Positions 46,460 to 60,941 of a DNA stretch of 64,000 nt are shown one piece after another. Where the stretch lies: NCBI RefSeq assembly GCF_041248615.1, contig NZ_CP158426.1; one strand, 5' to 3'. The translations under genes and the position numbers were made by a program. The notes under the pieces are model-generated. The model ran no database searches. It saw nothing but the letters and a program-made list of their open reading frames with translations, and had not been told where the DNA came from. Every line of letters starts with the position of its first letter. The stretch's first letter is position 1. The stretch comes from Escherichia coli. GTDB lineage: Bacteria; Pseudomonadota; Gammaproteobacteria; Enterobacterales; Enterobacteriaceae.

Positions 46460-47437
46460 TCAATCGCTCCCTTTCCGCCCTTCAGCTACAGGGTCGTTGT
46501 CGGCGATAACAAAACCTAAGTCCTGAGAGAATCTCTCTCGTGGGAATCCTTTAGCAGGTAAACCCATTGAATCATATCCACATCCGGGAACATTTGGTTT
46601 AGAGTCAATAAGGTCTGCAATTTGCCGAAGCCATGTTGATCCCGGACCAAGTCGTTTAACTAAGTACCAGATAATACAGATCGCGCTAAAAATCCTCTCG
46701 CAACTCTCTGGATGGAGATTAAGTCCGTCAAAGTATTCATTATCCGGTACTGGAACTCGGGGATGCTTTCTATTCCATATTCTGGAATGGTGAGCGCAAC
46801 GATTCCTTATGAGATTAAGGCACTTCAACCATTTTGCAAATGTCTGCTTATTATCAATGCCAAAACGACGTATAATTTTCCCCTGCATATGACCATTAAG
46901 CATCGCATAATATTTAGACATCTGACCAAAATCCCAGGTCTCCACCGCCACCCAAAATGGAATCTCCTTGCCTTGGCTTCGATGCCATTCAATACAGTCA
47001 TCTCTGCTTTCGTCTAATTTTACTTTTTGCTTATACACCCAATGCTCGAAGGCAGATGAGAATTTTGGATTAATGTATTTTGATGACATGTAGGCAAGTG
47101 GATCATTGCGACCAACCTCATGCGCGATGACTGAACGAACATGAATCTCTATTCTTTCGATAGCATCAATCATCAAAAGACGCAGTTTTTTGTCAAAAAG
47201 ATATAGATCGTACGTCTTCTCGAAACTGGTACCAGCAAGAAATCGGTCTGTTCTGTACGAAAGACCTTTATCTGTTGTCGCAATAATTCTTGATGGGTAC
47301 CAAAAACCTGACAATCGATAATATCCAACCTGCGACAGCTTACGTATCGCACGATTTCGATCATTGATAATCATGCCACGTTCAAGTAGCAATCCTAGCA
47401 ATTCGTGATAGTCCTTATGAGGCTTTGCGGCAATCAT
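46460..47437 (-). CDS. Abi_2-family (AbiD/AbiF-like) abortive-infection protein
   Basis: Start at internal ATG (MIAAKPHKDYHELLGLLLERGMIINDRNRAIRKLSQVGYYRLSGFWYP…); conserved blocks YYRLSGFW and LIRNRCAHHSRIWNRK are the hallmark of the Abi_2 (PF07751) family as I recall it. Confidence 0.65.
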   Translation of the reverse strand: MIAAKPHKDYHELLGLLLERGMIINDRNRAIRKLSQVGYYRLSGFWYPSRIIATTDKGLSYRTDRFLAGTSFEKTYDLYLFDKKLRLLMIDAIERIEIHVRSVIAHEVGRNDPLAYMSSKYINPKFSSAFEHWVYKQKVKLDESRDDCIEWHRSQGKEIPFWVAVETWDFGQMSKYYAMLNGHMQGKIIRRFGIDNKQTFAKWLKCLNLIRNRCAHHSRIWNRKHPRVPVPDNEYFDGLNLHPESCERIFSAICIIWYLVKRLGPGSTWLRQIADLIDSKPNVPGCGYDSMGLPAKGFPRERFSQDLGFVIADNDPVAEGRKGSD

Positions 47438-47809
47438 AGTGGCGAAACAAAAGATAATAAAAGGCCCGACCGTGAAACTCACATGCCTGAAATCGGCGGC
47501 GGAGAAACAGAGGATCGGGCTCGGTTGCCTGTAACTCTATCCGAAGTTATCCACATGTCAATGCACAGTTACTTAGGAAACTAACATAGATACTATCATC
47601 ACTCACGAAAAACCACTATATGTGGTTTTTATTCATATTGTTATCCACTACAGGCTGTGTCAATAACTTTTACCTATTAATTGGGTAATTTCTACATTTT
47701 CCTATGCTGGCTAGTTTCTCTACTGAAAAGTTGGCACTCCTTAATCGCTTTTCGGTTAATACTATCGGTCTTCATATTGCCAGCAGCATACGCCATCCGA
47801 TAATTTCTA

Positions 47810-48200
47810 TGCTACGCGCGCGTACTTGTCGCAAAATATCAGGCAAAGGCCAGATTCAGAACGTCGTGATAACCACCAGCACAACATGAGATGTCATGTA
47901 ACGCGATTTATCACACCAGATACATGTGATTGGTGTACCCGCATAAAACATCGTCATAGCGCGTCCTGTGCGCATATACGCCGATAATCAACACATCACC
48001 ACCACTCTGTCTTATGTAGAGAACAGTTTTATGGTGCTCCCCGCCATCGTGTGCGTACTGGTCGGACGTAGTTGCAAAATTTTTTGCAACTGATACCCCT
48101 CGCGCGCGTACTGGTCACGAAATTGGTGTTTTGCTGTGGCAGTGATATCAGAAAAATCTTCCTGTTTCACATAAAGCGGATATGCGCGTACTGTAACGGC
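47810..48200. promoter_or_regulatory. repeat-rich divergent control region between the Abi-like gene and the secreted-protein gene
   Basis: Four copies of GCGYGTACTKGT (about 47817, 48050, 48103, 48184) and a 10-bp-arm inverted repeat AGTTGCAAAA-TT-TTTTGCAACT at 48070-48091; no credible ORF. Confidence 0.45.
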
Positions 48201-48307
48201 CCCATCAACTGGGAGCGGATTTGAAATCCCGACCCAAGCTATGTACCAAATGCCATGTCTTGGATATATGATGATTGCCATTCTAAACAACGCTAAAGGG
48301 AGGGTTG

Positions 48308-48708
48308 GTGTGAATCAATTGAAGCGATTGGTTGTCTCCGGTTTATTATTTGCTTCTTTTGGAGCGAACGCTGAATGCTGGATTATTGGTGATCTGAAAG
48401 GACAAGAAGCCTCAAGTTCAGATGGGTATAACTATAAGTTATCATCTATACCAGATACCTTTCATTTGGTAATAAGTAAAGAGAAGGCGGATCTTATCTT
48501 GGCAAAAGATGGTATAGGTGGAGGTATTGATTATTACCCGCTATCTCCGAATGCCATGATGGGAAGAAGCTATCGAGATGGTCAACTGACGCTTGTCACA
48601 TGGGCAATCTCAAATGACGGAAAAGTGATCCATACACGAACAATTAGTCGATCTGATATAGGCTCATTTACAGGCTCATTTGTCGGCAATGTTAAAGGCA
48701 AGTGTTAA
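48308..48708 (+). CDS. small secreted/periplasmic protein (candidate superinfection-exclusion factor)
   Basis: GTG start at 48308 preceded by AGGGAGG; signal peptide (M)NQLKRLVVSGLLFASFGANA, then a hydrophilic ~110-aa domain. Function is inferred from position only. Confidence 0.45.
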
Positions 48709-48770
48709 TGTTCATAACTATTTGAAAAAAATACTAATTACTATTATAACCAACCATCCATGGCCATCTG

Positions 48771-50876
48771 TTATTGAGCTTCCTTTTGCGATGCTTGTGC
48801 TGCTGTGGTCAGTGATTGTGTGACCGTACTGATCGCTCTGTCATATGCTGTGCTACCTTTTGGCGTATTTGCCAGACGTAACAAGGCATTTCGTATAACA
48901 GGGCTTTCGTATGCCTTCGCTGCTCCGCCTACGGCACCAGCAGCAGGAACAACAAACGCAGCCGTTTTTAGCATCCCCGCTAATACTGCTGCGTTTATGA
49001 TGCCACCACCAACTAACAATCCATAAAGCTGCTGACCATTTAAGTTTTGAACGTTCGCTTTTGCCGCGTGTCTTGTATCGTTGAGGTATTTAATAACGCC
49101 GTCCAGTTCCTTTCCATGTACGCCTTTAAAGAAAGTTGCTGATTGCTTCCTGTTCCGGTGTAACGCATTAATAAACTTCTCAACACTGATATTTCCAGAC
49201 GGATCAGTCGCCTTATCTACAGCATTCTGAACTATAGCTGCTCGTGCGTTTTGCCTACCATTGTCATCCAGAAGCCTGTAAAGCTGAGAACGTTCTGATG
49301 GGCTTTGGCTAAAAACGAGTTTTGTTACATCCTCAGGCGTGGCCTTGCCGCTGGCTATTGCCTTTTGAACGCGCGTTCTTCCCATCATGTCATTGAATTT
49401 AGACCATGAGCGATCAACCCTTGCCATATTAATGGCTTCGTCTGCTCCAAGATTTTTGGCTACGGCTTTTTTCATATCCGCCGTATATGCCTTGTAGATA
49501 ATATCGCTGGCTTTCTGGAGCGTATCTTTATCAACAGTGTCAGATGACGCCATAAATCGCTTTCGAAGATCGGTTCTGTTTTCCCTCGCCAGACGCAGGT
49601 CATTTGGTCCGCTGGTGATATCGTCTTTAAATTGCTGCAAGACTTTTACCGCGGCTCTATCCTGAGATTTGCCCGGGCGGCTTAACACGGCAATCTGATT
49701 GTCGATAGCTTTTACCGTGTTTGAGAGATCGACAGGGGTATCCCCCATAGCGTCAATTATGCGGTTATATCGCTTTCCTGCTGCCTCAATGAATTTTTGT
49801 TGCCCTTTAGTCGCAGATTCATAAAGCTGTTTATCAGAAATGCCACCCAGACCATCGCTAAATGTTCTGACTAAATTTTCTCGTGCTTGTTGTTGATTCA
49901 GCCGATTCTTACCGGTTCCAAAAAAAGGAACTCTTTCGCCTAATGTCTGAGCCTGACTCTGCATAAAGGTTTTATCTTTCAACATGTCACTGGTCATTAA
50001 CGGCAGATTTCTTTCCGATGCAAAGTCGACAGCAGCCTTTGCTTCAGGCGACATATCACCACGAACAGCCCTCGAAACCGCACTCGCTGTATTTTCCAGC
50101 CCCTTACCAATACCACCAATGCCAGCAGAAATTACCGTTTGTAACGGATCAATATCTTCTCCACCAGCAAGGCTGGTGGCTCCCTGTAGTGCTAAATCTG
50201 TAGCTGCTGATTTCCCTATGGCCCCCAGCACCGTTCCGGCCCTGCCCGCTGGTGTAAACGCCAGCGCATTAGCCAGAAACGATGCCACGTCTTGCGGCGA
50301 TAAACCCGGCTTGTTCAGAGCATAATCACCGGATGGCAGGGAAACGATAGTGTTACCCTTCTCATCCTGCCTTAATTTCGCTCCCATGCTCTGAAGAATC
50401 TTTTCCTGAGATGCGTCAGAGCCGAAAAGTTGAGACCATCGAGCTTTTAGAGCATCCATGCTGAGTGAGGTTAACTCTGGGGCAAGGTCGACATTTTGCA
50501 GTCTCTCCATCTCTGGAGTCATTCGGCTTTCGCCTGTTATAGCATCGCGCATCGCAGCCCCAAGACTGGCTCCCTGTTCTGCTGAACGCTCAAGCCCCTC
50601 TCTTTGCTGAGTAGCTAACTTTGCATACCCTGACGCAAGAGAATTATCAGATGATGTATGTTGAATATTTTGAGTTGCTGATTGGTATCGGTCTATTTCA
50701 TTCGTTGATGGTAGTGGATAGGCAGCATAAAAAGCCTGCTTAGCCTGCTCTACACTTTCTCCGGCTTGCGGGGCAACGACTTCATTAAAGTATTGCTCCT
50801 GAGCCTGCGCTTTTTGTTCTGGTGCTAACGCCTGATACTGTGGAGAGGCGATAACATCTTTCCATGCTTTAGCCAT
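48771..50876 (-). CDS. large alpha-helical protein, possibly a P22 gp16-like ejection/internal virion protein
   Basis: 701 aa, A/Q/K-rich; its ATG overlaps the upstream stop (TAATG). Identified by size and order only, not by recalled sequence identity. Confidence 0.4.
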   Translation of the reverse strand: MAKAWKDVIASPQYQALAPEQKAQAQEQYFNEVVAPQAGESVEQAKQAFYAAYPLPSTNEIDRYQSATQNIQHTSSDNSLASGYAKLATQQREGLERSAEQGASLGAAMRDAITGESRMTPEMERLQNVDLAPELTSLSMDALKARWSQLFGSDASQEKILQSMGAKLRQDEKGNTIVSLPSGDYALNKPGLSPQDVASFLANALAFTPAGRAGTVLGAIGKSAATDLALQGATSLAGGEDIDPLQTVISAGIGGIGKGLENTASAVSRAVRGDMSPEAKAAVDFASERNLPLMTSDMLKDKTFMQSQAQTLGERVPFFGTGKNRLNQQQARENLVRTFSDGLGGISDKQLYESATKGQQKFIEAAGKRYNRIIDAMGDTPVDLSNTVKAIDNQIAVLSRPGKSQDRAAVKVLQQFKDDITSGPNDLRLARENRTDLRKRFMASSDTVDKDTLQKASDIIYKAYTADMKKAVAKNLGADEAINMARVDRSWSKFNDMMGRTRVQKAIASGKATPEDVTKLVFSQSPSERSQLYRLLDDNGRQNARAAIVQNAVDKATDPSGNISVEKFINALHRNRKQSATFFKGVHGKELDGVIKYLNDTRHAAKANVQNLNGQQLYGLLVGGGIINAAVLAGMLKTAAFVVPAAGAVGGAAKAYESPVIRNALLRLANTPKGSTAYDRAISTVTQSLTTAAQASQKEAQ

Positions 50877-52297
50877 TAATCACCCCATAGTGAAGAAAAG
50901 TTACTGCTGGCTGCTGGCTGTGATACCTGCTCAGATTGCGGCAATGTCTGCGACGAAGAAGCAGTTCCTCTGTCAACTGCTGAAATAACCCGCAAAGCAT
51001 CATAAGTTCGACCAGAAGCAGCTTTCAGCGAATTGAACTGGTTTTCCATCTTCCGGCGCTTGGTATCAATGGTTTTTGTGGAGTCGCCAGGCTGAGGGAA
51101 ATACATTTGATAATATTTTGACATTTCAGCAGGTGCGATAGCTGCCCCTGTTTCCTGACGGAGTATTGCCATTATTGCGTCATTAGCATTAACAACGTAT
51201 TGCTGCTCTGCTGGGCTGAGCGTTAAGTTAGCCAGCGTCCCATTACCCAAAGCATTATTAATGATCGCCACTCGCTGTGGGCTAAGCTGGTCTTTCAGTG
51301 TATCTATTGAATCAAGAGCATCCCTAACCCTGTATGCAAATCCAGCAGCTTTTTTAGCCCCATCTGGCGACTTTTCCATGATCTTTTGGGCTGTTGGCAA
51401 AGCTATTGGACGAAACCCATCTCCAGATATTGGCTGGTTTAGTTTTCCCTGCTCTTCACTTCCGTCTGTGTAGTATTTTGTGACAGTGCCATCATCGTTT
51501 TCTCTAACACTCATTAATTTTTTGGCGTTTGTATTAATTCCAGCCGCTGCCGCAAATGCCGCCGCCCCCTCTGGATCCGCCTTTAACATTTGAGCGTACT
51601 GATTGTAATTCTGCATTGCTGCTGTTGGTGCATATGCTGACGTTAACGCATTTGCTCGGTTAATATCCTGCCCTCTCGCCTGAAGTGCTTCGCTGGCCTG
51701 ATTGCTGCGGATTGTCTCTGCCAACTTGCCACGTTCAATATCCCGACCTTCCATTTGATCTTTGATATCGAAATACTTCTCATGACCGAGAGAAAACAGT
51801 GCCATACTACCAGCAAGCCGCTGGAATCCCTGTGGATCATTAACATGCATTTCGGCAACAGACTCAGGAGAAATTCCCAGGCGACGCATTTCATCTTCGT
51901 TATCTGCTATGAATTTTCCAAATGCCCCAGTTCCGAGCGAAGATGCGATTTGAGCACTAGTCGCAAGATGACCAATAGAATTTCTCTGGTCGTCATCAAT
52001 AAAGCCCATCCCTTTCTGAACGCTTTCAAATTCTTCTGGATACTCAGAAATAAGACTGCGCATTTTGTTTCTGTCTCCAGACTCAAAAGCCCCGGCATAT
52101 GCTTTCTGAAACTCTGCTTTACGCTGTTGTTGACGTGCCTGCTGATTAATCTCAGCAACGCCTCTTAGCCCCTGTAGCGCCATTAAACCTACGTTTGGCT
52201 GCTGCTGATACTGCACAGGCTGAGGAACGGAAGAACGAGGAGCATTATCATTTTGCGGTGCCATGCTAGGCAGCCCGCCAAGTTGCCATGTCGCCAT
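50876..52297 (-). CDS. possible P22 gp20-like ejection protein
   Basis: 473 aa (P22 gp20 is about 471 aa as I recall); TAATG coupling at both ends; Q/A-rich N-terminus. Confidence 0.4.
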   Translation of the reverse strand: MATWQLGGLPSMAPQNDNAPRSSVPQPVQYQQQPNVGLMALQGLRGVAEINQQARQQQRKAEFQKAYAGAFESGDRNKMRSLISEYPEEFESVQKGMGFIDDDQRNSIGHLATSAQIASSLGTGAFGKFIADNEDEMRRLGISPESVAEMHVNDPQGFQRLAGSMALFSLGHEKYFDIKDQMEGRDIERGKLAETIRSNQASEALQARGQDINRANALTSAYAPTAAMQNYNQYAQMLKADPEGAAAFAAAAGINTNAKKLMSVRENDDGTVTKYYTDGSEEQGKLNQPISGDGFRPIALPTAQKIMEKSPDGAKKAAGFAYRVRDALDSIDTLKDQLSPQRVAIINNALGNGTLANLTLSPAEQQYVVNANDAIMAILRQETGAAIAPAEMSKYYQMYFPQPGDSTKTIDTKRRKMENQFNSLKAASGRTYDALRVISAVDRGTASSSQTLPQSEQVSQPAASSNFSSLWGD

Positions 52298-52974
52298 TAG
52301 AATCCAAGCCCCCCAACAAGACCAATAAGCCCACCACCAATAGCGCCGGCCGCAGTTCCTATTCCAGGAACAACGGAACCAAGTTGCGCACCCGCTAAAG
52401 CGCCTGATGCTGCCCCACCAATACCACGCGCAAGACTGGATGGCTGCTGCGCCTGACCTGCACGAATAGCGCCAAGCCCCTGCAAGAGTTGTCCGGTATT
52501 ATTGGCGTAGTTTTGCCCTGCCGTTGCCTGCCCTGATGCCGCATTCATCCCGACATTTAGCAGGTTTCCATAATTTTGCATTTGCCCACTAAGCCAATTG
52601 TTATAAAGCATGGGCGCAATGGAAGATAACTGGTTACTGGTAGCTGTTGAGCCAAGCCCCCCGGTAGCTTCTGCTGAGACAAGGTTCTGATAACGGGCCT
52701 GATCTGCCTGTGTTTTATATAAACCAGAACCAAAGAAATCATTCGCGGCTTTATTCTGCCCTTCCAGAGTCATCAGTCCTTGTAGTTGTTGTAAAGCAGG
52801 CAATCCGACTTCTGCATACGGCTTGAGATTATTCATCACCGTATTCCACTGCTCGCGCTGCAAATCAATTGCCTGCTGCTGGGCCTTCGCCTGAGCTTTA
52901 GAGGCACCACCATCACCGCCTTTTTCGTATACGGCACGATTGAGATGTTTATGAGCTATATGGGTAATTAACAT
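52297..52974 (-). CDS. possible P22 gp7-like ejection protein with Gly-zipper C-terminus
   Basis: 225 aa (P22 gp7 about 229 aa); C-terminal Gly-rich hydrophobic segment GIGGAASGALAGAQLGSVVPGIGTAAGAIGGGLIGLVGGLGF suggests membrane insertion. Confidence 0.4.
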   Translation of the reverse strand: MLITHIAHKHLNRAVYEKGGDGGASKAQAKAQQQAIDLQREQWNTVMNNLKPYAEVGLPALQQLQGLMTLEGQNKAANDFFGSGLYKTQADQARYQNLVSAEATGGLGSTATSNQLSSIAPMLYNNWLSGQMQNYGNLLNVGMNAASGQATAGQNYANNTGQLLQGLGAIRAGQAQQPSSLARGIGGAASGALAGAQLGSVVPGIGTAAGAIGGGLIGLVGGLGF

Positions 52975-53429
52975 TCGCTGAATTCCTTATATTGTTGCCG
53001 AGTTAACTGATAAAGCGTTACGCCGACGGGTTTACCACATCTGATATAAGCATCATCAAGGTGACCAACACGGGTAGCGCCAAGCAAACGGATAATTGCC
53101 CGTCCGTATTTCGTGGTGTCAGGAACCATAGTGATGCTGTTAAGGAATGGTGAGTTTTCGAGAAGCCATTTGCAGAATAATCGATGCCCTTGCAGTGCAT
53201 ATTCACCACGGAATCCGGGGTCGTACACCGCATGGCATTCAACAATGCTATGCCAGAAGTTACGCACTTCATGAACGCCAGCCAGCACCAATCCTTCGTA
53301 GATGCCGAGATATACCGCATCAGGCTTGATGTAGTACGTGTGCCCCGGCTCAACAATATTTTCGGTATTGCCAGGATCGTTAAGAAAGGCCTGTAATCGC
53401 ACAGGGTTATCAATAAATTTTAGTTCCAT
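52968..53429 (-). CDS. hypothetical protein, first large gene of the operon (gp14-like by position)
   Basis: 153 aa, ATG start, 7-bp overlap with the next gene. Confidence 0.35.
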   Translation of the reverse strand: MELKFIDNPVRLQAFLNDPGNTENIVEPGHTYYIKPDAVYLGIYEGLVLAGVHEVRNFWHSIVECHAVYDPGFRGEYALQGHRLFCKWLLENSPFLNSITMVPDTTKYGRAIIRLLGATRVGHLDDAYIRCGKPVGVTLYQLTRQQYKEFSEC

Positions 53430-53445
53430 GCGATGCCATCCATTT

Positions 53446-53607
53446 TCACATACAGCCTGCCAGCGCCTTATCTATTAACCCTCGAGCAATTTCATGCAGA
53501 GTTGGCGCTACTCCAATTCCTGATTTTTTACGCTGCTCTTCCTGAATTTTCTTTATCGCTTCCATTTGCTTCTCACTTATCAATACCGGCTTTACTGAAA
53601 TAGCCAT
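53446..53607 (-). CDS. small ORF (53 aa) heading the operon
   Basis: Below the 60-aa track cut-off; ATG at 53607 preceded by AGGGGG; MAISVKPVLISEKQMEAIKKIQEEQRKKSGIGVAPTLHEIARGLIDKALAGCM; 16 bp upstream of the next gene. Confidence 0.35.
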   Translation of the reverse strand: MAISVKPVLISEKQMEAIKKIQEEQRKKSGIGVAPTLHEIARGLIDKALAGCM

Positions 53608-53620
53608 AACGCCCCCTTAG

Positions 53621-53640
53621 AACTGTATAAAACAACAGTT
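53621..53640 (-). promoter_or_regulatory. LexA-box-like palindrome upstream of the operon
   Basis: AACTGTATAAAACAACAGTT = CTGT-N8-ACAG with perfect AACTGT/ACAGTT arms, 14 bp upstream of the small ORF start. Confidence 0.45.
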
Positions 53641-53747
53641 ATTATAGTTTCACAAATCGCAATATTCATCATCGTAATTGCAAAATATGAAACAGATAGC
53701 ACAAAAAAATGCCACCGCTCAGTAGCTGGTGGCATCGTTCTGTGTGT

Positions 53748-53775
53748 CAGGTTTTGACAGGTTTTTTATGGACTC
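53748..53775 (+). terminator. hairpin plus T-run (plus-strand terminator-like) followed by conserved ATGGACTC motif
   Basis: CTGTCAGGTTTTGACAG then GTTTTTTATGGACTCTAAAAACT; a near-identical tail follows the hairpin at 59577-59606. Confidence 0.4.
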
Positions 53776-54053
53776 TAAAAACTATATTTATGGTGTCGCA
53801 TTACCCTTCACGGCAGGCGCTTTTCAGTTCTGCCCTTGCTTCTGGCTCCATTGGTAATTTGATTCGCGATCAGCTATGCGGATGGTTTGCTGAACAGGCA
53901 TAACAACTTCTCAGTGGCTGTTTTCTGAACTACGAAAATTTCGTAGTGCTCACTTTCAAAAACGTCACGCCCTTGTACACAGGATTTTACGAAAGTCTCG
54001 TAAAACACTCTCTGATGCCAGCCAGGTGTTGTGCGCATCAATTCAGTCACATT

Positions 54054-54169
54054 GTGTTGGTTCAAAATACCGTGTTGTTGGTTCAGTGTTGGTTCAATAA
54101 AAAGAATAAAATCCTTATAAAACAATACTCTTTACAAATTGAACCAACTGAACCAACTGAACCAACACC
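54054..54169. repeat. iteron cluster B, the inverted counterpart of cluster A
   Basis: GTTGGTTCA x3 then TGAACCAAC x3; 54130-54169 (CTTTACAAATTGAACCAACTGAACCAACTGAACCAACACC) is the exact reverse complement of 45764-45803; lies 22 bp past the primase-helicase stop. Confidence 0.8.
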
Positions 54170-54191
54170 TTTTCTACGCACATGAAGAAGC

Positions 54192-56948
54192 TCATTCTTC
54201 AGATGAGTTATAATCTCCTGGCTGGTAATTGAGTACATAAACGTTTATTTGTCGTCCCTGAATACGTGGTGATTTTCTTTGGTATCCACGACCGCTGTTT
54301 GGTGGGGTTAGCATCCCGGCTTTTTTCAACACTTCAGCAAACTGTTTTGCGTTGAAACCACATGCGATCTCCTTTTCAAATGTGGCCGGGAATGTGTAGA
54401 AAATCATTGGGCTTTCGTCATGTTCTCCACGCTGACGGTATCCGGCTAAATCTTTGATGGGCAAATCTGCCGGGCTGTATGGAAATGGTGCAAAACGGCT
54501 AAGCCCATAGGCATTAAGAAATGCCTCCGTTTGTTCAATAATCTGCTGATGCTCTTTGTTACCTGTGCCGAACTCGCGCAACCATGCGTTATAGCTGTGC
54601 TGTATCGCATCACGGCATGTCTGAGCATCCCAGCCTGTTACAACCTCGCCTAACAACAATGCGGCCTCCAGAATGGCAAATCGCGCGGCTACACGGTGAA
54701 CCTGCTCACCATAATCGGATGGGATCAGGCTTCTCCATCTGCTTTCGCAGTCACGAACGGTTTTAATAGCCTGTTGCTGGTGGTCTGCCAGCCATTTAAT
54801 CCACTCACGCCCGGACGCGCCGTGGTGATGCTGGTAAGCGTCTTTCAGTGCGTCTGCGTGCTGTTTTCCGTTCTGGTAATCGTGAAAGCGTACTGCTTTA
54901 CTCAACGGAATATTCAGCAGTCGCACCAGTTGCCCGGCTTTGGTTTTTCGCCCGGAAGTAGCGATAAATGTTTCTAAATCCATTTCTCCGGTGCTGATTG
55001 CCACTGTACGCCAGCGTTTTAGATCCCGGTTTCCACCATCTTTAGCGCCTTGCAGTTTCCCTACACCGTTAAATAACGCATAGGCAGACTGTGAAACGCT
55101 GACAGGATCAGCGCCCTGACCAACTTCATCAAGCGGCATTAGTCCGTCATTGTGGGCGGCGGCCTCATTTGCCAGCCCCAGCGCGGTTCCGTACCACGTC
55201 AGCCGCAGTAAATCAGGGTTGCCGTATAAGCTGCTCGCCACGTTTGCCGTGGTGGTCTTACCTGCGCTCGACTGCTCATAGAAATGAATGCCGAACCCGT
55301 CAGCGCCCACCAGCCCAATCAATGGCGCTGCCAGTGCTGCGCCGATCCCGGTCATCATTGAATAGTTACCAAAGGCCAGACGCGCCACGTTATCACGCCA
55401 GCTTTTCGCGCTCCCTGAGACGGTATATCCGGCTGCGGCTGAGCTTCTCCCGCTGAACAGCACAGGATTTTCAGGTGTTCCGATGATTTCCCCATCAGGC
55501 ATGATGTACGCTCCGCATTGCCAGCCAGTGGCATGAGCAACACGCCACAATTCACGAGAGCCACTGCGTTGTAGCCAGTCTGCCAGTATTGCTCTGAGGC
55601 TGCTTTTGGTCGTGACATTTACCCCACCAGCTTTAAGTGTGCGCCATCCTTCACGTTCACCAATATCAGCCAGTGGAATGGCAGCGGTTGTCGGCGTTTC
55701 AGAACCAAACGACAGCCAGCGAAGAATGAGATACTGGTCTTTATCGTCTCTGCCAGTACCGATAACGCTTAACGGAGAACATAACCAGCTTTCGTTATTG
55801 ATGATTTCTCCACTCTGGCTGTCAGCTCTCGGAGATACCCAATAAATACCATCCTCGCGGCTTTCTATTCTTGGTTTCAGTGGATCGGTATCCATAACCT
55901 TAAAATCGCTTCCCTCAATGGTCTGTGGCTCCTGTTTCACGCCATTACCCTGTGGTTGGTACATTGACTTATTGAACGCTTCTGTGGCGCATTTAATGCC
56001 GTGTTTTTGGTGGTAATCATTCCAGTCTGCTTTGTGATCTGTCGGGGGTAATGCCACCCATCCAGAAACAGATAAAGCTGCTTTTTCTGCTGCTATTCTC
56101 CCCGTGTTTTGTCTTCCTTCGCTGTGGTCGTTATCCGCAGCAATGATGATTTGTGCTGAAGGAAATTTATCCCGCAGTACCTGGGCGACATATAACAGGT
56201 TCCCGGCATCAATCGCCGCCACTGTCAGCGCCTCTGGACGAATTAAATGGGCAGATAATGCCGTTGCCAGCCCTTCTGCGATTAAGATGCTCTGTGTTGT
56301 TTCTGGTGCGTTTATGGCGTGATATGCCCCCCGCTTTGCTGAACCTGTCAGGAGTCTTTTTTCACCATGTGAGGTAATAGTCTGTGCTGCTGTGACTGCG
56401 CCGGATTTATCCACCAGCGCCAGCAACAGAGATCCATCGGGCAACACGGGGAATGTAAAATCACCTACCCCTTTCGCAACCAGATAATCAGATTTGCCGT
56501 TTACAGCCTTTCTGCGCATGTCATCAAACTGACGGGAAAACGTATCCCGTCTTTGTTGTTCGTCCTTCTCTGCCCTTTTCAGGCGCTCCTGTTCGCGTCG
56601 CTGGCGCTCGGTTTCCAGTTGTTCCCGTTTCTGGCTGGTGGCTTCTGGTGTTTCCGTTGTCCGGTAATCAATACCCAGAACATCAGCGGCAAGAAGCGCC
56701 GCCTCTGTTGTGTCGCAGTTATTTACGCGTTTAATTAAATCCAGCCCATCACCAGCGCCGCACTGATTACAGATGAAGCTACCGCGCCCGTTGTCATCGA
56801 ACCGGAATCGATCTTTGCCCCCACATGCAGGGCAGGGAGCATGACGGCGCGGAGAGTCAGGGACATTTATGTTCAGGCAGCCCAGCACATGAGGCCAGTT
56901 GTTTTCAGACGCACTGATAACCTGACGGATAAGATCAATGTTTCGCAT
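54192..56948 (-). CDS. primase/helicase of the integrative element (zinc-ribbon + TOPRIM + P-loop NTPase)
   Basis: About 918 aa from ATG at 56948; CPACGGKDRF…CNQCG zinc ribbon, TOPRIM-like IIIAADNDHSEGRQ, Walker A YEQSSAGKTT; iterons directly downstream. Confidence 0.8.
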   Translation of the reverse strand: MRNIDLIRQVISASENNWPHVLGCLNINVPDSPRRHAPCPACGGKDRFRFDDNGRGSFICNQCGAGDGLDLIKRVNNCDTTEAALLAADVLGIDYRTTETPEATSQKREQLETERQRREQERLKRAEKDEQQRRDTFSRQFDDMRRKAVNGKSDYLVAKGVGDFTFPVLPDGSLLLALVDKSGAVTAAQTITSHGEKRLLTGSAKRGAYHAINAPETTQSILIAEGLATALSAHLIRPEALTVAAIDAGNLLYVAQVLRDKFPSAQIIIAADNDHSEGRQNTGRIAAEKAALSVSGWVALPPTDHKADWNDYHQKHGIKCATEAFNKSMYQPQGNGVKQEPQTIEGSDFKVMDTDPLKPRIESREDGIYWVSPRADSQSGEIINNESWLCSPLSVIGTGRDDKDQYLILRWLSFGSETPTTAAIPLADIGEREGWRTLKAGGVNVTTKSSLRAILADWLQRSGSRELWRVAHATGWQCGAYIMPDGEIIGTPENPVLFSGRSSAAAGYTVSGSAKSWRDNVARLAFGNYSMMTGIGAALAAPLIGLVGADGFGIHFYEQSSAGKTTTANVASSLYGNPDLLRLTWYGTALGLANEAAAHNDGLMPLDEVGQGADPVSVSQSAYALFNGVGKLQGAKDGGNRDLKRWRTVAISTGEMDLETFIATSGRKTKAGQLVRLLNIPLSKAVRFHDYQNGKQHADALKDAYQHHHGASGREWIKWLADHQQQAIKTVRDCESRWRSLIPSDYGEQVHRVAARFAILEAALLLGEVVTGWDAQTCRDAIQHSYNAWLREFGTGNKEHQQIIEQTEAFLNAYGLSRFAPFPYSPADLPIKDLAGYRQRGEHDESPMIFYTFPATFEKEIACGFNAKQFAEVLKKAGMLTPPNSGRGYQRKSPRIQGRQINVYVLNYQPGDYNSSEE

Positions 56949-57306
56949 CACCGTACCCCACGTGGTCTATAGCGTTTGCGATATGGCTAACCAGCATCTG
57001 CCACTTGGTTATTCCGTAATCAGTCAGCATGCCATCATTGTTTAGCCACATATCAAATTCAGCGGTTGTCGCAAGTTTCCACTTATCGCCGTGGACAGTC
57101 CTCATTGCTGGGTACATGAATGCGCAAATCAGATCACAAACATCTGACGGCTTCAGAGATGTAGTAATGGTGCGTCCCTCTGGCGTCTGAATTGCCATTT
57201 TCTCTTCACCAGTAGAATGAAGGTTATGAATCCACACAGCACCAGCAATCTTTGCCACCTGCTCTCCGATTGCGGAGCTAAGCGCCATTTCTGCATTTTC
57301 ACGCAT
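56935..57306 (-). CDS. hypothetical small protein
   Basis: 123-aa ORF overlapping the primase start and the upstream ORF end. Confidence 0.4.
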   Translation of the reverse strand: MRENAEMALSSAIGEQVAKIAGAVWIHNLHSTGEEKMAIQTPEGRTITTSLKPSDVCDLICAFMYPAMRTVHGDKWKLATTAEFDMWLNNDGMLTDYGITKWQMLVSHIANAIDHVGYGDAKH

Positions 57307-57640
57307 GAGAACCTCCCGCTACAGTTGCGCCCATGTCATTAACCATGCTTTGCCATATCTCACGCCCGACGTCAGTCAATCCGTCCTTAGTGACGCAACG
57401 CTCAAGAAGCTCGATCCCCACGGTTTCCCACTGCGGGTAGAACACTTTCATGGCTGCCAGTGTGTAGCTATCGATCAGGCTGCGAACGCCTTTTACTCCA
57501 TTGACGATTTCCACACGTACGGCCTCGCCGTCCGCATCAACCATGAAATAGTCCCCGCCGCTGGTGGAGGTAATGTGGTTATACAGTGCCGACGCATACT
57601 TATTTGCCAGCGCATTCAGTCGGAAATTTTTAGTAATCAT
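57299..57640 (-). CDS. hypothetical small protein
   Basis: 113-aa ORF in the same overlapping chain. Confidence 0.4.
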   Translation of the reverse strand: MITKNFRLNALANKYASALYNHITSTSGGDYFMVDADGEAVRVEIVNGVKGVRSLIDSYTLAAMKVFYPQWETVGIELLERCVTKDGLTDVGREIWQSMVNDMGATVAGGSHA

Positions 57641-57650
57641 GGCTCCATCC

Positions 57651-58253
57651 TCAGTGCGTCACTGGTTCCGCTGGCATGCCGTTTTCATTCAGTTCAGCTA
57701 TAAAGCTGTTGTGAAGTTCAGCAAGCGTTTCACGACCAAATGGAGTCAGTGCTCCTTGTTCCACATCCATCATGGCTCTGTAGAAAATGATGGCGCGTTC
57801 TGTGCCAGACTCGATGCCAAAACGTTCTATCATCGCGCCCTCAATGTTGTTTGCCATAGCGAGGCGCTCTGCTACTGGATACAGCGGCATGGCGACGATG
57901 CCGTTGGAATAAACAGCCACTTCGGAAGGATTGCCAGTATCATCAATGATGCTGACAGTGCCGTTTTCCTCTCTCATTTCCAGCATGAATACTGTTGCGA
58001 TCAGCCATCTCCACATAATGACGTTATGCTGTGATGTGTAATCGAAATATCCCTGGTTGCCGCCATCGGCTATAGCGAGATGTATTGACATGCCTTCATC
58101 TGGTTTATCGTCATAATCCCCGGCATCCAGACGATTTACGGCATCAATATATGAGACGGTCTCAACGCGTTCTGTCATGCCATCGTTGCTGCGGTGCATG
58201 ATGTTTACGCCGTCAGGCGTTGCTTCTGCATGGAAGGTTAAGAAATTATTCAT
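57651..58253 (-). CDS. hypothetical protein
   Basis: About 200 aa from the internal ATG (MNNFLTFHAEATPDGV…), whose start overlaps the stop of the upstream ORF; the longer 235-aa frame is probably an over-extension. Confidence 0.4.
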   Translation of the reverse strand: MNNFLTFHAEATPDGVNIMHRSNDGMTERVETVSYIDAVNRLDAGDYDDKPDEGMSIHLAIADGGNQGYFDYTSQHNVIMWRWLIATVFMLEMREENGTVSIIDDTGNPSEVAVYSNGIVAMPLYPVAERLAMANNIEGAMIERFGIESGTERAIIFYRAMMDVEQGALTPFGRETLAELHNSFIAELNENGMPAEPVTH

Positions 58254-58467
58254 GTTTCGCCTCGCCTGAATGATTCTGTAACTCATATTTGCCCAACAAT
58301 TCGTCCGCTTCCTGAATAGCTTCTGGTACGCCATTGAGCAGTGACATAACCGCGCCAATCATTAACTTGTCTCTGTTGCTGGGGCTGGCCCCTTCAAGCC
58401 AGAACCCTAAAACAGTCTGAACCTGTTCGATGCGACATTGCGCTTCAATGAGCTGGATGTTGGTCAT
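58246..58467 (-). CDS. hypothetical small protein
   Basis: 73 aa; overlaps both neighbours. Confidence 0.4.
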   Translation of the reverse strand: MTNIQLIEAQCRIEQVQTVLGFWLEGASPSNRDKLMIGAVMSLLNGVPEAIQEADELLGKYELQNHSGEAKHE

Positions 58468-58727
58468 TTCGCACTCTCCACATCGATTAAACTGATATCT
58501 ATCAGGGAGGTAACTTTTTGTAGCCAGCTATTGATTACTGTCGCCTGCTCCCCTCCCACCGAGGGAATAATCTCATTCATCACATGAACCAGACCTGTGC
58601 GCGCTCTGGTAAGCCGTTCAGTCGCGCAATCTGCGGGAGTGAATGTGTCTGGATATGGCTCTTCACTCCCCAGCAATGATTCAATTTCCAGCTCACACGG
58701 ATGACGATAAATTAAGTTGATATTCAT
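58464..58727 (-). CDS. hypothetical small protein
   Basis: 87 aa; 4-bp overlaps. Confidence 0.4.
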   Translation of the reverse strand: MNINLIYRHPCELEIESLLGSEEPYPDTFTPADCATERLTRARTGLVHVMNEIIPSVGGEQATVINSWLQKVTSLIDISLIDVESAK

Positions 58728-58918
58728 TTTTCACCCCCAAGAATTACCAGCTCTGCACGGGCATCGTTAACCAAAGATGAGCACGCTTTAATCGCATCCA
58801 CGACATCAGTAGCGTCCATTTCTTCAGCCGAAAGACTGACAGCAACCAGGACAGCCGCTGCTTGCTCGATTAATTGAAGTGCGGACGTAAGGCGAGGGGT
58901 ATTAATTGAGTTATTCAT
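58724..58918 (-). CDS. hypothetical small protein
   Basis: 64 aa; 4-bp overlaps. Confidence 0.35.
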   Translation of the reverse strand: MNNSINTPRLTSALQLIEQAAAVLVAVSLSAEEMDATDVVDAIKACSSLVNDARAELVILGGEK

Positions 58919-59126
58919 TGGTTGCCCCCGTTTTTACTGGCATTTCGCCACCTTCCAGCAGGAAATGAACGTCACGAACGGCGAGATCCAATATCGCGAG
59001 TAACGCCTTCAGTTTTTCGTCTCGTGAGGGAGAGTTGCTCACCAGAATGTCATTAATCACTTCTGTCAGTGTGATGATCTGGCTTGTGCGTTCGAGGGGG
59101 TCCATATGCACATCGTAGGTTTTAAT
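58911..59126 (-). CDS. hypothetical small protein (C-terminal part of the tracked 342-aa ORF)
   Basis: Internal ATG gives MIKTYDVHMDPLERTSQIITLTEVINDILVS…, a plausible 71-aa protein; the upstream part of the long frame looks like out-of-frame translation of a structured GC-rich region. Confidence 0.35.
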   Translation of the reverse strand: MKTYDVHMDPLERTSQIITLTEVINDILVSNSPSRDEKLKALLAILDLAVRDVHFLLEGGEMPVKTGATNE

Positions 59127-59329
59127 CATGTGCCACCTCCATGCGGATACGACCAGCAAAAAAGCAGACGTGATCGCGCACCAGAGAACGGCGAGCATCG
59201 CGTTCAGACTCGGCAGCAATATGATGAATTTTGGCGGTAATTGTCGGGCAATCGCGGCGAACTGCGGCGATAATCCAGATAAATTGCGGTTTTTGGGTAG
59301 GGGTAGTAGCCAGCATGTGGCAGCCTCCT

Positions 59330-59610
59330 TGATTGATGGTTTATAGCCACCGCCGGAGGTCCTAAGCTCGCTGGCGGTGGACTGTACAGGGTTAGGACTA
59401 CTGGCAATCAAGGAAACCAGCCTGACCGAAGTCAGCCCCATACAGCCCACCATTGATAAGGTGTGCGTGTGCGCCGATACAAAAAAAGACGCTGGCGCGT
59501 CATGTATCGCCTCGATTGCCTGCGGGGTCCTAATCCCGGCACCCGTTTTATGAGGTGCCTTATAACCATAAACCGTGTTGCCGCATAACGGCAAGCTCTT
59601 TTTTATGGAC
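59330..59610 (+). ncRNA. candidate structured RNA / immunity-type region (C4- or P4 CI-like antisense RNA?), ending in a plus-strand terminator
   Basis: GC-rich segment with hairpins (CCACCGCC…GGCGGTGG), two copies of GGTCCTAA, long-range complement CCTTGATTG/CAATCAAGG, and a hairpin plus T-run at 59577-59606; sits inside an otherwise minus-strand gene chain. Confidence 0.3.
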
Positions 59611-59932
59611 TCCGAAAACTCACTATTGGAAGAACCAGATGCACAATACATCGCGCTCATTTCGTTAACGTCACGCGCATGGACGAAGGTTTTTGTGGAG
59701 TCACTACGCGAGAAGAGAAAGCCATCTACGACCAGAAATTCTCTGGCGCAGCCGCTGACCTTCTCAACGCTAACACCATCGACCGTAATTTCTGACATGG
59801 TTAAGGCATCCGCTCCTACCACCAGCAAATGACAAACTTTGCTTGTATCTGCTGTATTAATGCCTGACTTTGCTGTCATATTGCTGGATTTTGGCGACAT
59901 ACCAGCCAGTGAAAATATCTTCTTCTGGACGG

Positions 59933-60115
59933 TTAGCATTTGTTAACCTCCGCGAACTCCTTCATGAAGCGCGCCAGCGGTTGTACGCATGGCGATTGAT
60001 ACCCGTCGCGATAAAACGTCACTCGGTTGTGAGACACGCTTTCGACAGTAACGAGTGCTCCGTGGGCATCTTTGTAGCGTTTTTGTGGTTGTGGTATTCC
60101 TGTTGGCTTAGACAT
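59933..60115 (-). CDS. small phage protein (DUF4222-like, tentative)
   Basis: 60 aa from the internal ATG: MSKPTGIPQPQKRYKDAHGALVTVESVSHNRVTFYRDGYQSPCVQPLARFMKEFAEVNKC. Confidence 0.4.
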   Translation of the reverse strand: MSKPTGIPQPQKRYKDAHGALVTVESVSHNRVTFYRDGYQSPCVQPLARFMKEFAEVNKC

Positions 60116-60941
60116 TGAGCGCCTCCAGACGCTTGGCGAGCCAGCGTTGCGACAGGTGGGTGAGTTCTCCTTTGCGCTGCTCATATTCCATGCCCATATC
60201 AATTAACGTGATATTGGTGCTTTCGAGATATGAGAGGTGCTCAAGCTGTTCTGCGTTCATATGGTCGCGAGGTTCGCCAGAATAGCCATTTATCCGCGCC
60301 CACTGCTTAGCAGTTAGCCCTCCAAGAACGATACGAGAAATCATATTGCTCTCGTTTGTGTAGTGGTGTTGCTGCGTCGTTTTCCCCTGCTCGGCACGGG
60401 CCATATTCAGCGCATCGCACATTGGCTTAAAGTTGTTTGCGGCACTGATACGGGCTTTTAGCTGGCGACGATAGCGGGCGGCGATTTCAGGCACGCTACG
60501 CTGTAATTCTTCCTCGCACTGGATGAAATAACGACGGATAGCGCGACCCTGATCATTGCGTTCGATCATTGCCAGTTCTTTCGCCATTCCGACACTTAAC
60601 AGATAGTCTTTGCCGGGTCTGCCAGACTGCTTAATCTTGCTGTAAGCCGCGCCATTCGGGCTTTTCCCCAAATTTGGGGAAATTGTTTTATGGACTGAGT
60701 AATCGTGCCCAATGGTGAAGTCATATTCAGAGATGCGATCAGTGATCCATGTAGAGAAGTCTTTTCCCACGCCCAACGCTTTGTGTAACGCTTTTGCGCT
60801 AACAATATTGGTTTCACGCCCACCGATGTGACCAGGAATAACCGGGACAATTGCGGCAAATTCATTACCGTTAATTGTGCCCAGAGAGGCGTTCAGATGA
60901 GGGGCGGCCTCAGAAATTAATCTGCTTTTTTCGATGTTCAT
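60108..60941 (-). CDS. phage antirepressor-like protein (AntA-type N-terminus, KilAC-type C-terminal region)
   Basis: 277 aa; N-terminal block …NIVSAKALHKALGVGKDFSTWITDRISEYDFTIGHDY…; central …LLSVGMAKELAMIERNDQGRAIRRYFIQCEE… Domain names from memory. Confidence 0.55.
   Translation of the reverse strand: MNIEKSRLISEAAPHLNASLGTINGNEFAAIVPVIPGHIGGRETNIVSAKALHKALGVGKDFSTWITDRISEYDFTIGHDYSVHKTISPNLGKSPNGAAYSKIKQSGRPGKDYLLSVGMAKELAMIERNDQGRAIRRYFIQCEEELQRSVPEIAARYRRQLKARISAANNFKPMCDALNMARAEQGKTTQQHHYTNESNMISRIVLGGLTAKQWARINGYSGEPRDHMNAEQLEHLSYLESTNITLIDMGMEYEQRKGELTHLSQRWLAKRLEALNV

Follow-up and report, generated by a model that had tools for sequence, protein, structure and literature searches.

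A conserved repeat module in a phage-satellite-like island of Escherichia coli, possibly a copy of a P22-type packaging signal

In the chromosome of Escherichia coli NRZ14408, several direct copies of a short motif are gathered in the gap between an AbiD/F-type gene and a gene for a small secreted protein, which raises the question of what these repeats are for. We analyzed a 64,000-nucleotide stretch around them (hereafter the window, to which all coordinates refer), in which the gap extends from 47438 to 48267 (start annotated by PGAP) or 48309 (conserved GTG start). The repeats belong to a conserved non-coding stretch that most likely acts as a DNA site and that is possibly, judging by its sequence, a copy of the pac signal of a P22-like helper phage.

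The gap lies inside an integrative element of ~19 kb inserted between dinD and yicC, a phage-satellite-like island present in about one tenth of E. coli genomes. The order of its genes is as follows: int (the integrase call is that of the RefSeq annotation), an AlpA/Ant/Ash region with the C4 and isrK antisense RNAs, a TOPRIM-DUF927 primase, the P22-like ejection genes gp14/7/20/16, the repeat module, a cargo hotspot, an RHH protein, ori-like iterons and PerC. When 20 ORFs of the element were scanned against PHROG, the primase, Ant and four P22-type ejection/virion proteins (gp14, gp7, gp20 and gp16) were recognized and no ORF matched a terminase, capsid, portal or tail family; homologues of sid, psu, delta or rpp were likewise absent from the ORFs scanned. 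The element carries what would be expected of a satellite mimicking a helper packaging signal: an integrase, genes for replication and a module related to a helper, but neither terminase nor capsid genes. Its gp7-like protein is at most 70–76% identical to Lederbergvirus gp7, and a literature search returned no description matching such an element, its helper-dependent induction or transfer included. The module itself is flanked by cargo slots, the AbiD/F cassette on the left and the small secreted-protein gene on the right, each of which has its own expression signals, so that the module is not needed for their expression. On the right, the bodies of the ORFs that follow the GTG at 48310 differ among genomes, which marks this position as a second cargo slot.

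A preliminary description of the region had reported four direct copies of a 12–13-bp motif. These copies are real: a GCGCGTACTG core is found at 47818, 48051, 48104 and 48184 (spacings of 233, 53 and 80 bp). Two of them (47818 and 48104) show the exact pattern GCGYGTACTKGT, that at 48051 departs from it at one position (GTGCGTACTGGT), the copy at 48184 retains its first 10 nt only (GCGCGTACTG, followed by TA) and a fifth, weaker copy is present at 47959 (GCGCGTCCTG). The true repeat unit is longer than first reported, ~23–25 nt (CGCGCGCGTACTKGTCRCRAAAT); we refer to the motif as box A, which reads TTTCGTGACCAGTACGCGCG on the minus strand. Enumeration of the motif, as had been proposed, gave a frequency above that expected from composition. 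GCGYGTACT occurs exactly three times in the 400-bp stretch of the repeats and once elsewhere in the 64 kb, compared to ~0.77 occurrences expected for the whole window, and no shuffled sequence contained four; one 9-mer, with at most one mismatch, has five copies in the 419-bp core defined below, a number reached in 0 of 200 first-order Markov simulations (maximum, four). Copy 1 holds a perfect 12-nt palindrome, TACGCGCGCGTA. A sixth copy (45143–45165), outside the region first described, is part of an 87-nt paralogous segment: 48101–48187 and 45143–45225 are 69% identical (E 1.6e-4), and locus L004 has the equivalent of the 45143 copy at 4632–4675. The module is best described as a tandem array of degenerate units; on the minus strand, which also encodes the ejection proteins, each unit pairs box A with a pac-like box.

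Table 1. Features of the repeat module and its surroundings (window coordinates).
Feature	Coordinates	Strand	Remark
Conserved non-coding core, 419 bp	47806..48224		Unannotated in most genomes
Box A copy 1, TACGCGCGCGTACTTGTCGCAAAAT	47813..47837	+	First backbone sequence beside the left cargo slot
Box A copy 2, CGTGTGCGTACTGGTCGGACGTA, degenerate	48048..48070	+	
Box A copy 3, CTCGCGCGCGTACTGGTCACGAAAT	48099..48123	+	Version kept across genera
Box A copy 4, GCGCGTACTG, truncated	48184..48193	+	
Invariant block, 73 nt	48118..48190		0 variable sites among 12 distinct E. coli-type copies
pac-like box GAAGATTTTTCTGATATCACTG	48140..48161	-	Minus strand, 48161 to 48140
Conserved leader, RBS GGGAGGG, GTG start 48310	48225..48312	+	
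Paralogous unit: box A + degenerate pac-like box	45143..45225	+	Downstream of PerC, near the left end of the element
Abi cassette promoter TTGACA-16-TAGAGT + hairpin leader	47463..47561	-	Upstream of the AbiD/F-type gene

The limits of the conserved core (Table 1) were obtained by megablast/blastn (query positions 357–775) and checked in an alignment of the copies. The core is present at 95–99% identity in 544 of 5,426 complete E. coli genomes, the flanking genes being exchanged on both sides, and it is kept at 80% coverage or more in 523 of the 545 matching records. On the left, conservation breaks off at positions ranging from 47745 to 47809, next to box A copy 1. Variation is unevenly distributed: the left half of the core contains 30 variable sites in 243 nt (~12%) versus none in the 73-nt invariant block (P ~1e-4 by a Poisson estimate). 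The palindrome noticed in the preliminary description, AGTTGCAAAA-TT-TTTTGCAACT (48070–48091), was recovered with 10-bp arms that are 100% complementary; across copies the arms are invariant, variation being confined to the two central bases (T, A, C or gap). The Ec387-type variant can dispense with the palindrome. Strain Ec387 (locus L006) has a 53-bp deletion spanning exactly copy 2 to copy 3, the pattern that recombination between the repeats would leave.

The core does not behave as coding sequence, in agreement with the initial view that the gap has no credible ORF. Non-triplet and single-base indels separate the copies, and the ORFs annotated in them differ in frame and length. No ORF of the core matched a Pfam or PHROG family or gave a phage tblastn match, and a protein search with the longest annotated minus-strand ORF returned 41 matches, all of them short ORFs of the same locus in various frames.

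We then looked at box A outside E. coli, using 44 related loci fetched via the RHH gene (742 kb) and a threshold of at most 6 mismatches. The ~24-nt motif recurs in related elements of Providencia, Morganella, Xenorhabdus, Tatumella, Erwinia and Buttiauxella, within flanks that cannot be aligned: it is 75–96% conserved (0–6 mismatches of 24) in 14 loci of other Enterobacterales, i.e. in only 14 of the 44, and 17 of the 18 instances lie on the strand of the RHH gene. Most relatives have just one or two boxes. Minus-strand transcription is likely in the regions where the boxes lie, such as operon 3' ends; the Providencia box lies past the terminator of the upstream operon, one Morganella copy lies within the primase coding sequence, and Erwinia (L068) has 48-nt tandem units, each made of a box B and a box A, upstream of an Ash-like gene. 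Box B is also found in the window, ~30 nt upstream of the putative isrK promoter (59607–59621). Box A stays constant while the primases diverge (46–81% identity), and its conservation is similar to that of the RHH protein, its companion in every locus (60–79% amino-acid identity). Among 50,697 phage records, blastn found no real match to either the region or the motif, and a scan of viral contigs for three motif copies returned only eight near-identical E. coli-type copies and chance matches. The conservation of the motif across genera, the 73-nt invariant block and the maintenance of the core between exchanged cargo slots together support the view that the repeats constitute a selected, directional cis-element rather than a chance occurrence. 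Box A thus offers a concrete handle on what would be a new DNA–protein or DNA–RNA interaction in these elements.

The centre of the invariant block suggests what this cis-element might be. On the minus strand it reads GAAGATTTTTCTGATATCAC, which resembles the pac site of P22. According to the literature and the P22 record, that site spans 22 bp inside gene 3 and has the 12-bp consensus AAGATTTATCTG; a 17-nt regular expression for pseudo-pac sites, AA[GC][AG][TC][AT][AT][ATC][TC][TC]T[GT][ACG][ACG][ACG]TC, has been published from ~11 Salmonella sites. The 12-mer AAGATTTTTCTG (48160 to 48149, minus strand) has 11 of the 12 consensus bases and is the sole match with one mismatch or fewer in the 64-kb window; it deviates at position 8, where the published expression permits T. 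The E. coli box fails the 17-nt expression at position 14 (T) and thus agrees with it at 16 of 17 positions. Counted without gaps from the first pac base, the identity between the core and P22 is 16/22, 24/34 and 35/66. Statistically this likeness is modest, as 1 of 60 shuffles equalled the highest identity of any 34-mer of the core to gene 3 (24/34). The core matches 17 of 22 bases at the pac position of the E. coli P22-like phages Dewey and IME10.

The resemblance is closer in two relatives, from Buttiauxella (L047, which also carries gp14/7/20) and Symbiopectobacterium (L077). Both have GGAAGATTTATCTGGGGTC within 30 nt of box A, i.e. a perfect consensus that also fully matches the regular expression; in 1.5 Mb of sequence, chance would supply ~0.09 perfect pac 12-mers. 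Both regions can be aligned to the E. coli core (nhmmer E 8e-4 and 5e-3), and the alignment of the three genera shows AAGATT..TCAC..AGC conserved in non-coding units. When P22 gene 3 was used as the nhmmer query, the Buttiauxella locus was retrieved at E 0.3 and no match was obtained in the E. coli core. The composite of box A and pac box does not seem widespread, as a metagenome scan for box A with a perfect pac box yielded one further relative (of the Buttiauxella locus) and one chance match. Note that Providencia- and Morganella-type relatives keep box A without a recognizable pac box and that box A has no counterpart in P22 pac.

Our best reading, which we put forward tentatively as plausible rather than probable, is that the module is a tandem cis-acting array mimicking the pac site of a helper. 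During growth of a P22-like helper in the cell, the array would be recognized as a pac site by the small terminase of that helper, and headful packaging of replicated element DNA would start there and head toward lower window coordinates; that the helper would be P22-like, that its terminase would bind and that packaging would follow we infer from the sequence likeness. The preliminary description had suggested operator sites or a small-RNA locus: its view of the region as non-coding holds up, protein binding to the repeats is conceivable, the binders named (the RHH or PerC-like regulator) find no support here, and pac had not been considered. The pac-like box of the core shares with P22 pac the orientation of the virion-protein genes. 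It differs in that it lies in non-coding DNA of an element devoid of terminase, downstream of a gene 16 homologue, and in that it is embedded in degenerate tandem repeats and paired with box A.

Satellites that carry the packaging recognition sequence of their helper without the full machinery are well known, since P4 (with P2) and the E. coli PICIs share cos with their helpers. However, cos is cut at a defined position, whereas the array described here would be a headful pac signal. A closer parallel is provided by the PLE satellites, which mimic the pac site of ICP1 by means of a 71%-identical fragment with a 14-bp identical core located in a non-coding region (Boyd and Seed, bioRxiv 10.1101/2024.04.22.590561). 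In both cases the helper terminase is absent from the satellite, a short non-coding stretch is ~70% identical to the helper pac, and a near-perfect short core is kept among satellite variants. The host, the helper and the sequence are different, the E. coli candidate site is repeated, and PLE encodes packaging inhibitor and specifier proteins, none of which was identified in the E. coli element. If the array does mimic pac, this would explain the spread of a common island (~10% of complete E. coli genomes, with relatives across Enterobacterales) whose exchangeable slots hold anti-phage genes such as AbiD/F. A second example of pac mimicry by a satellite would then also be available, in model organisms, the Vibrio PLEs being the only one shown so far.

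The element also holds a true fragment of P22 gene 3, 107 nt long (59685–59791), on the opposite strand and starting exactly at the pac base. This fragment, which is antisense to the Ash operon of the element, could on sequence grounds be the working pac site instead of the array; under the wider and rather doubtful reading given below, it could additionally interfere with helper packaging.

A different explanation, which we regard as somewhat unlikely, is that an element-encoded protein binds the boxes as an array, be it the RHH protein, another regulator or a factor akin to a packaging specifier. The role of such an array might be to regulate or insulate the flanking cargo-slot promoters, or to tag the DNA for some other process. 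The repeats are direct and directional, border the cargo region and lie immediately 3' of minus-strand operons. The parallel conservation of box A and the RHH protein, the Erwinia units upstream of an Ash-like gene and the box B near the isrK promoter point in the same direction. Promoter prediction, as suggested at the outset, gave one promoter-like site (47777–47804, plus strand), present in some variants only, which abuts box A copy 1. However, in the other genera no conserved sigma-70 promoter was seen beside the boxes by inspection, the spacings listed above are not helically phased, and only 14 of the 44 RHH-fetched loci contain box A at the threshold of 6 mismatches. As for the binder, the promoter of the RHH gene (45990–46430) has its own, distinct palindrome, GTATAACAGTGTTATAC (45941–45957), which is conserved or co-varies across genera, whereas box A does not co-vary; this makes it the better candidate for the RHH operator. 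Structure prediction of the RHH protein followed by a PDB fold search gave no informative fold match, and nothing ties PerC to the motif. Known RHH operator arrays (Arc/Mnt, omega, ParG) similarly consist of short repeated boxes near an RHH gene, but the E. coli boxes lie 1.4–2.2 kb downstream of the RHH gene, beyond the cargo.

Less probable still, the core could be a decaying relic of small-terminase and/or primase gene fragments, devoid of present function, that survives because the copies are young and because it passively serves as a homology anchor for recombination between the cargo slots; the finding would then be an ordinary one. The overall divergence of the core (2–5%) is equal to or above that of the neighbouring genes, so that neutral decay may apply to most of its length, and frameshifting indels and the 53-bp deletion variant exist. 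Capture of gene fragments of this kind does occur, as the clear gene 3 fragment at another place in the element demonstrates. The minus strand of the core is weakly similar to residues 78–106 of P22 gp3 (tblastn E 0.41) and to a segment of the Morganella primase Toprim domain (KHFREQYAR; 30 residues, E 0.029 in a tiny database). Both specific origins were set aside as weakly supported: for the small terminase, the tblastn similarity was accompanied by no nhmmer match and by no intact homologue in the 44 related loci, and for the primase, the remaining matches were not collinear with this single one. Neither PHROG, Pfam nor tblastn searches back a coding origin. The relic account also has to face the invariant block next to a stretch with ~12% variable sites, a box A kept at the nucleotide level in one orientation across genera whose flanks are unalignable, and the pac consensus positions kept in the non-coding units of three genera.

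It is very unlikely that the motif acts as RNA, either as a seed or target shared by transcripts of opposite strands or as part of a long regulatory 5' leader of the plus-strand gene. The promoter-like site would start a plus-strand RNA exactly at copy 1, the core is followed by a leader conserved up to the ribosome-binding site, the surroundings of the box A copies are probably transcribed on the minus strand (operon 3' ends, the Morganella primase mRNA), and the element already uses the C4 and isrK antisense RNAs. By contrast, the promoter-like site is absent from many variants, the Providencia motif comes after the terminator of the upstream operon, and the loops of the C4 RNA are not complementary to the motif, which led us to reject the latter as a C4 target. 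The idea of a small-RNA locus, raised in the preliminary description, also finds no backing in the core: an Rfam scan of the window gave no match in the repeat region, no terminator was found, and the folding z-scores are unremarkable (-1.5 for the whole core, +0.3 and +0.5 for the invariant block). Among both strands of the core and its sub-blocks, unusual stability was limited to the palindrome (z = -2.75 for the plus-strand fold of 48040–48130).

A role of the repeats as origin iterons to which the TOPRIM-DUF927 primase-helicase would bind, as in P4 ori/crr, is scarcely credible. They do share with iteron origins (lambda, SaPI/PICI, P4 ori and crr) the presence of several direct repeats and an A/T-centred palindrome, one box A copy is located inside a primase gene, and part of box A (TGGTCAC or TGTTCAC) resembles the P4 type I iteron, TGTTCACC. 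However, the repeats are irregularly spaced, there is no AT-rich unwinding region (the GC content of the core is 46–49%), relatives mostly have one or two boxes, and the motif does not co-vary with the initiator, as it remains unchanged while the primases diverge, down to 46–55% identity. A much more origin-like structure lies 2 kb away, at 45768–45887: three TTGGTTCA repeats, an AT-rich spacer and three inverted TGAACCAAC repeats at 21-nt spacing, an arrangement found in five other genera.

Integrase arm-type sites were rejected on the ground that the copies lie 3 kb from the end of the element, and no likeness to sigma-54, LexA, CRP, IHF, DnaA, parS or relaxase nic sites held across the copies by inspection.

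Returning to pac mimicry, a wider reading would place the array in an undescribed satellite family, widespread in Enterobacterales, that has its own P22-type ejection genes and neither capsid nor terminase, carries defence and moron genes in two exchangeable slots, and captures the headful packaging of its helper by means of tandem pac decoys combined with box A. As a whole, this joint reading is rather doubtful.

Finally, the left part of the gap contains a real conserved RNA element, as judged from sequence comparison, to the left of the region first described. On the minus strand, the promoter of the Abi cassette (47561 to 47534) is followed by a hairpin leader (47522 to 47463) and a U-rich tail, and comparison of five alleles and genera shows compensatory changes in the hairpin, from A-U to G-C. 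This leader is a component of the Abi cassette, is separate from the repeat module and accompanies the abi gene alone. An AbiD/F-family gene with its own promoter and structured leader is reminiscent of the AbiF/AbiFr type III-like toxin–RNA antitoxin system, a comparison that is limited to the left 300 bp of the gap.

The window comes from the chromosome of E. coli NRZ14408, where a ~19-kb element that houses the repeats is inserted between dinD and yicC (see Table). Since none of its ORFs hits a terminase, capsid, portal or tail family, this element resembles a phage satellite or else a strongly reduced prophage; no description of it was found in the literature searched. Its family (window ~44900-64000, and the loci L002-L008 and L041-L084 fetched from other genomes or contigs) encodes P22-type ejection proteins or large transglycosylase/tape-measure-like proteins, is devoid of capsid or terminase genes, occurs in ~10% of complete E. 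coli genomes and occupies at least two integration sites (dinD-yicC and adjoining paoD); relatives marked by the ribbon-helix-helix (RHH) gene are found across Enterobacterales.

Table. Features of the element around the repeat-bearing core (window positions)
Feature	Position	Strand	Remarks
PerC	45443-45730	minus	
Three tandem TTGGTTCA(G) repeats	45768-45793		between PerC and RHH gene
Three inverted TGAACCAAC repeats	45837-45887		21-nt spacing; AT-rich spacer separates them from the tandem repeats
Perfect palindrome GTATAACAGTGTTATAC	45941-45957		overlaps likely RHH promoter
RHH protein, 146 residues	45990-46430	plus	
Abi gene	46460-47437	minus	
Non-coding gap			between Abi gene and small secreted protein gene
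Left part of gap	47438 to ~47745		moves together with abi gene
abi hairpin leader	47522 to 47463	minus	followed by U-rich tail directly before abi start codon
abi promoter	47561 to 47534	minus	
Core	47806-48224		nearly ubiquitous among carriers; without annotation in most genomes
Inverted repeat	48070-48091		
Pac-like box	48140-48161	minus	
Right part of gap	48225-48312		conserved leader, ribosome-binding site, GTG start
Small secreted protein	48310-48708	plus	
P22 gp16, gp20, gp7, gp14 homologues	48771-53429	minus	
TOPRIM-DUF927 primase	54192-56948	minus	
Small genes, Ash and AntA, with C4 and isrK RNAs	59370-59558	minus	
Box B	59607-59621	minus	upstream of putative isrK promoter
Gene 3 fragment	59685-59791		strand opposite to the core's pac-like box
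Integrase	62722-63990	minus	

The repeats are real and non-random. Of the four direct copies listed in the preliminary description, two match GCGYGTACTKGT exactly (47818 and 48104), one has a single mismatch (48051) and one shares only the first ten bases (48184), while a fifth, weaker copy lies at 47959; the inverted repeat reported with them, AGTTGCAAAA-TT-TTTTGCAACT, is exact. Enumeration placed the motif above chance: these 400 bp contain three of the four GCGYGTACT occurrences in the 64 kb (~0.77 expected in the whole window), and one 9-mer is present in five copies in the 419-bp core, a number reached in none of 200 Markov simulations. The true repeat unit, CGCGCGCGTACTKGTCRCRAAAT (box A), is longer than first described (~24 nt), and an extra copy is located 2.7 kb leftward (45143-45165) as part of a paralogous 87-nt stretch (69% identity, E 1.6e-4).

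The gap region is carried by 544 of 5,426 complete E. coli genomes; in 126 of the 544, a place spans 80% or more of the complete 871-bp query, the abi-proximal 300 bp of which are included. The left limit of conservation falls at 47745-47809, the right one at 48224-48235 or at the GTG start. As the three parts of the gap have different histories, the core lies between two slots whose contents are exchanged: AbiD/F, an ImmA-type pair and small genes are among the contents observed in the left slot, and the ORF bodies 3' of the GTG differ among genomes. In the window (48295-48312) and in four related loci (L004, L006, L007 and L008), the leader, ribosome-binding site and GTG are kept and the downstream ORFs are unrelated; by sequence, cargo genes are swapped precisely at the start codon.

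The core was rejected as a gene, in keeping with the initial view that it holds no credible ORF. Single-base indels at 47887, 48037, 48080 and 48210 distinguish its copies, as does a 53-bp deletion spanning exactly copy 2 to copy 3, and the few RefSeq ORFs beneath it vary in frame and length. No match was obtained with Pfam, PHROGs or phage tblastn, and among 5.8 billion proteins searched the sole hits were frame-variable ORFs of the same locus.

The divergence of the core is 2-5% overall, which is not below that of the neighbouring genes, so that its presence alone proves nothing. Among 12 distinct copies, 30 variable sites fall within 47808-48048 and none within the 73 nt between copies 3 and 4 (48118-48190; P ~1e-4 by our own Poisson estimate). 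A scan based on RHH protein alignments, with one genome per species, gathered 44 related loci (from Providencia, Morganella, Proteus, Xenorhabdus, Tatumella, Pantoea, Erwinia, Buttiauxella and others), whose flanks do not align to E. coli. These loci contain 18 instances of the 24-nt motif at up to six mismatches, several of them at just one to three; 17 of the 18 are co-stranded with the RHH gene, and the usual position is immediately beyond the final gene of a minus-strand operon, at the edge of variable cargo. None of 50,697 phage records contains the motif, and in E. coli it is nearly confined to this element family, three of the 546 matching records holding weak partial matches only. Judging from the invariant block and from the recurrence of the motif across genera, the core is probably under selection as DNA. 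In Morganella morganii (L059 14524-14547), the motif (2 mismatches out of 24) falls within the coding sequence of the TOPRIM-DUF927 primase, where it encodes KHFREQYAR directly ahead of the Toprim motif IIIAADND; at this position the DNA of the E. coli primase is different.

At the centre of the invariant block, the minus strand, i.e. that of the ejection genes, reads GAAGATTTTTCTGATATCACTG. The P22 pac site (headful packaging signal) is GAAGATTTATCTGAAGTCGTTA, with the 12-bp consensus AAGATTTATCTG. The core agrees with this consensus at 11 of 12 positions, the sole such match in the window, with the P22 pac 22-mer at 16/22, with the first 34 nt of the P22 pac region at 24/34 (ungapped), and with the pac position of the E. 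coli phages Dewey and IME10 (GAAGGTTTTTCTGACGTCACAT) at 17/22. In Buttiauxella (L047) and Symbiopectobacterium (L077), the minus strand carries, at most 30 nt from the motif, GGAAGATTTATCTGGGGTC, a perfect 12-bp consensus that also satisfies the whole of the published pseudo-pac regular expression (in the 1.5 Mb searched, chance would give ~0.09 perfect 12-mers). Homology of both regions to the E. coli core was seen with nhmmer (E 8e-4 and 5e-3), the conserved columns of the three-genus alignment being AAGATT, TCAC, AGC and the motif. The Buttiauxella locus additionally contains gp14, gp7 and gp20, and carries a tandem pair of such units, of which the second shares TACGCGAGCAGA with the P22 small-terminase gene (gene 3). 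Because of the pac matches and these homologous units, the module may be seen as an array of degenerate units, each made of a pac-like box and box A. Such an array would mimic the pac of a P22-like helper, a tentative reading to which we grant somewhat less than an even chance; its closest precedent is pac mimicry by PLE, the satellites of vibriophage ICP1.

Several observations limit the pac reading. The best 34-mer identity was equalled in one of 60 shuffles, nhmmer with gene 3 did not find the E. coli core, and the E. coli pac-like box fails one position of the 17-nt pseudo-pac expression. Unlike the module, P22 has no counterpart of box A, and box A is conserved in relatives devoid of a recognisable pac box; a metagenome scan with the composite (motif plus pac box) returned just one further relative. 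Moreover, a genuine fragment of gene 3 is present elsewhere in the element. It shares 87% identity with P22 across 107 nt, homology beginning exactly at the first pac base, and its pac position reads GAAGGTTTTTGTGGAGTCACTA. Its region (59661-59795, plus strand) includes a 38-residue ORF with an ATG (59679-59795), antisense to the Ash operon. This fragment could be a rival or second pac candidate, an antisense to the helper terS mRNA, or a relic.

Instead of mimicking pac, the core might be a binding array for an element-encoded protein, which we consider rather unlikely. This proposal draws on a second conserved box, box B (GAGTTTTCGGAGTCC then ATAAAAAAG), since box B-like sequences precede both the putative isrK promoter and, in Erwinia, an Ash-like gene. 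Box B adjoins the motif in Erwinia (L068 17700-17900), where the two boxes, B and A, are combined in 48-nt tandem units, and in Symbiopectobacterium (L077 12340-12370). The initial reading of a functional non-coding repeat region was upheld, but not the binders it named, RHH or a PerC-like regulator: the palindrome at the RHH gene's own promoter is a better operator candidate. Kept in Klebsiella, Providencia and Morganella loci, with two TGTCTTAC repeats instead in Pantoea and Tatumella loci, this palindrome co-varies across genera and is likely an operator. That the core, with its invariant block, is a relic is more doubtful still. An RNA-level role, akin to the small RNA locus first suggested, is very improbable, structured RNA being unsupported for the core. 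Finally, a replication origin at the core is hardly credible, as a textbook-like iteron structure conserved in five genera lies instead in the tandem and inverted repeats between PerC and the RHH gene, an architecture also present in L048, L049, L058, L062 and L066 and likely to be the replication origin of the element.

The Abi protein belongs to the AbiD/F family (PADLOC AbiD, 7e-58). The promoter and hairpin arrangement ahead of its gene recurs in front of abi homologues of Raoultella, Providencia and Rahnella and of a second E. coli allele, and the hairpin displays compensatory A-U to G-C changes (five alleles and genera). By its arrangement, the abi leader would fit the cis-encoded RNA partner that has been reported for AbiF; 47463-47561 (minus strand) is possibly an AbiFr-like RNA partner or an attenuator.

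In one metagenome contig (L035 6001-6285), a deletion derivative has a DUF4222 gene fused to the core minus strand at 'YPLYVKQEDF', everything between being lost. At the left end of the element, 44824-44988 (plus strand) resembles several primase alleles in their C-terminal region, weakly but recurrently (identity 25-30%; E 0.1-2.4, tiny database), and may be another gene relic. Lastly, the RefSeq 'ash family protein' CDS (58911-59939, minus strand, 342 residues) spans the isrK and C4 RNA genes and the terminase fragment; the real Ash protein probably starts at an ATG near 59315, preceded by the C4 target and a ribosome-binding site.
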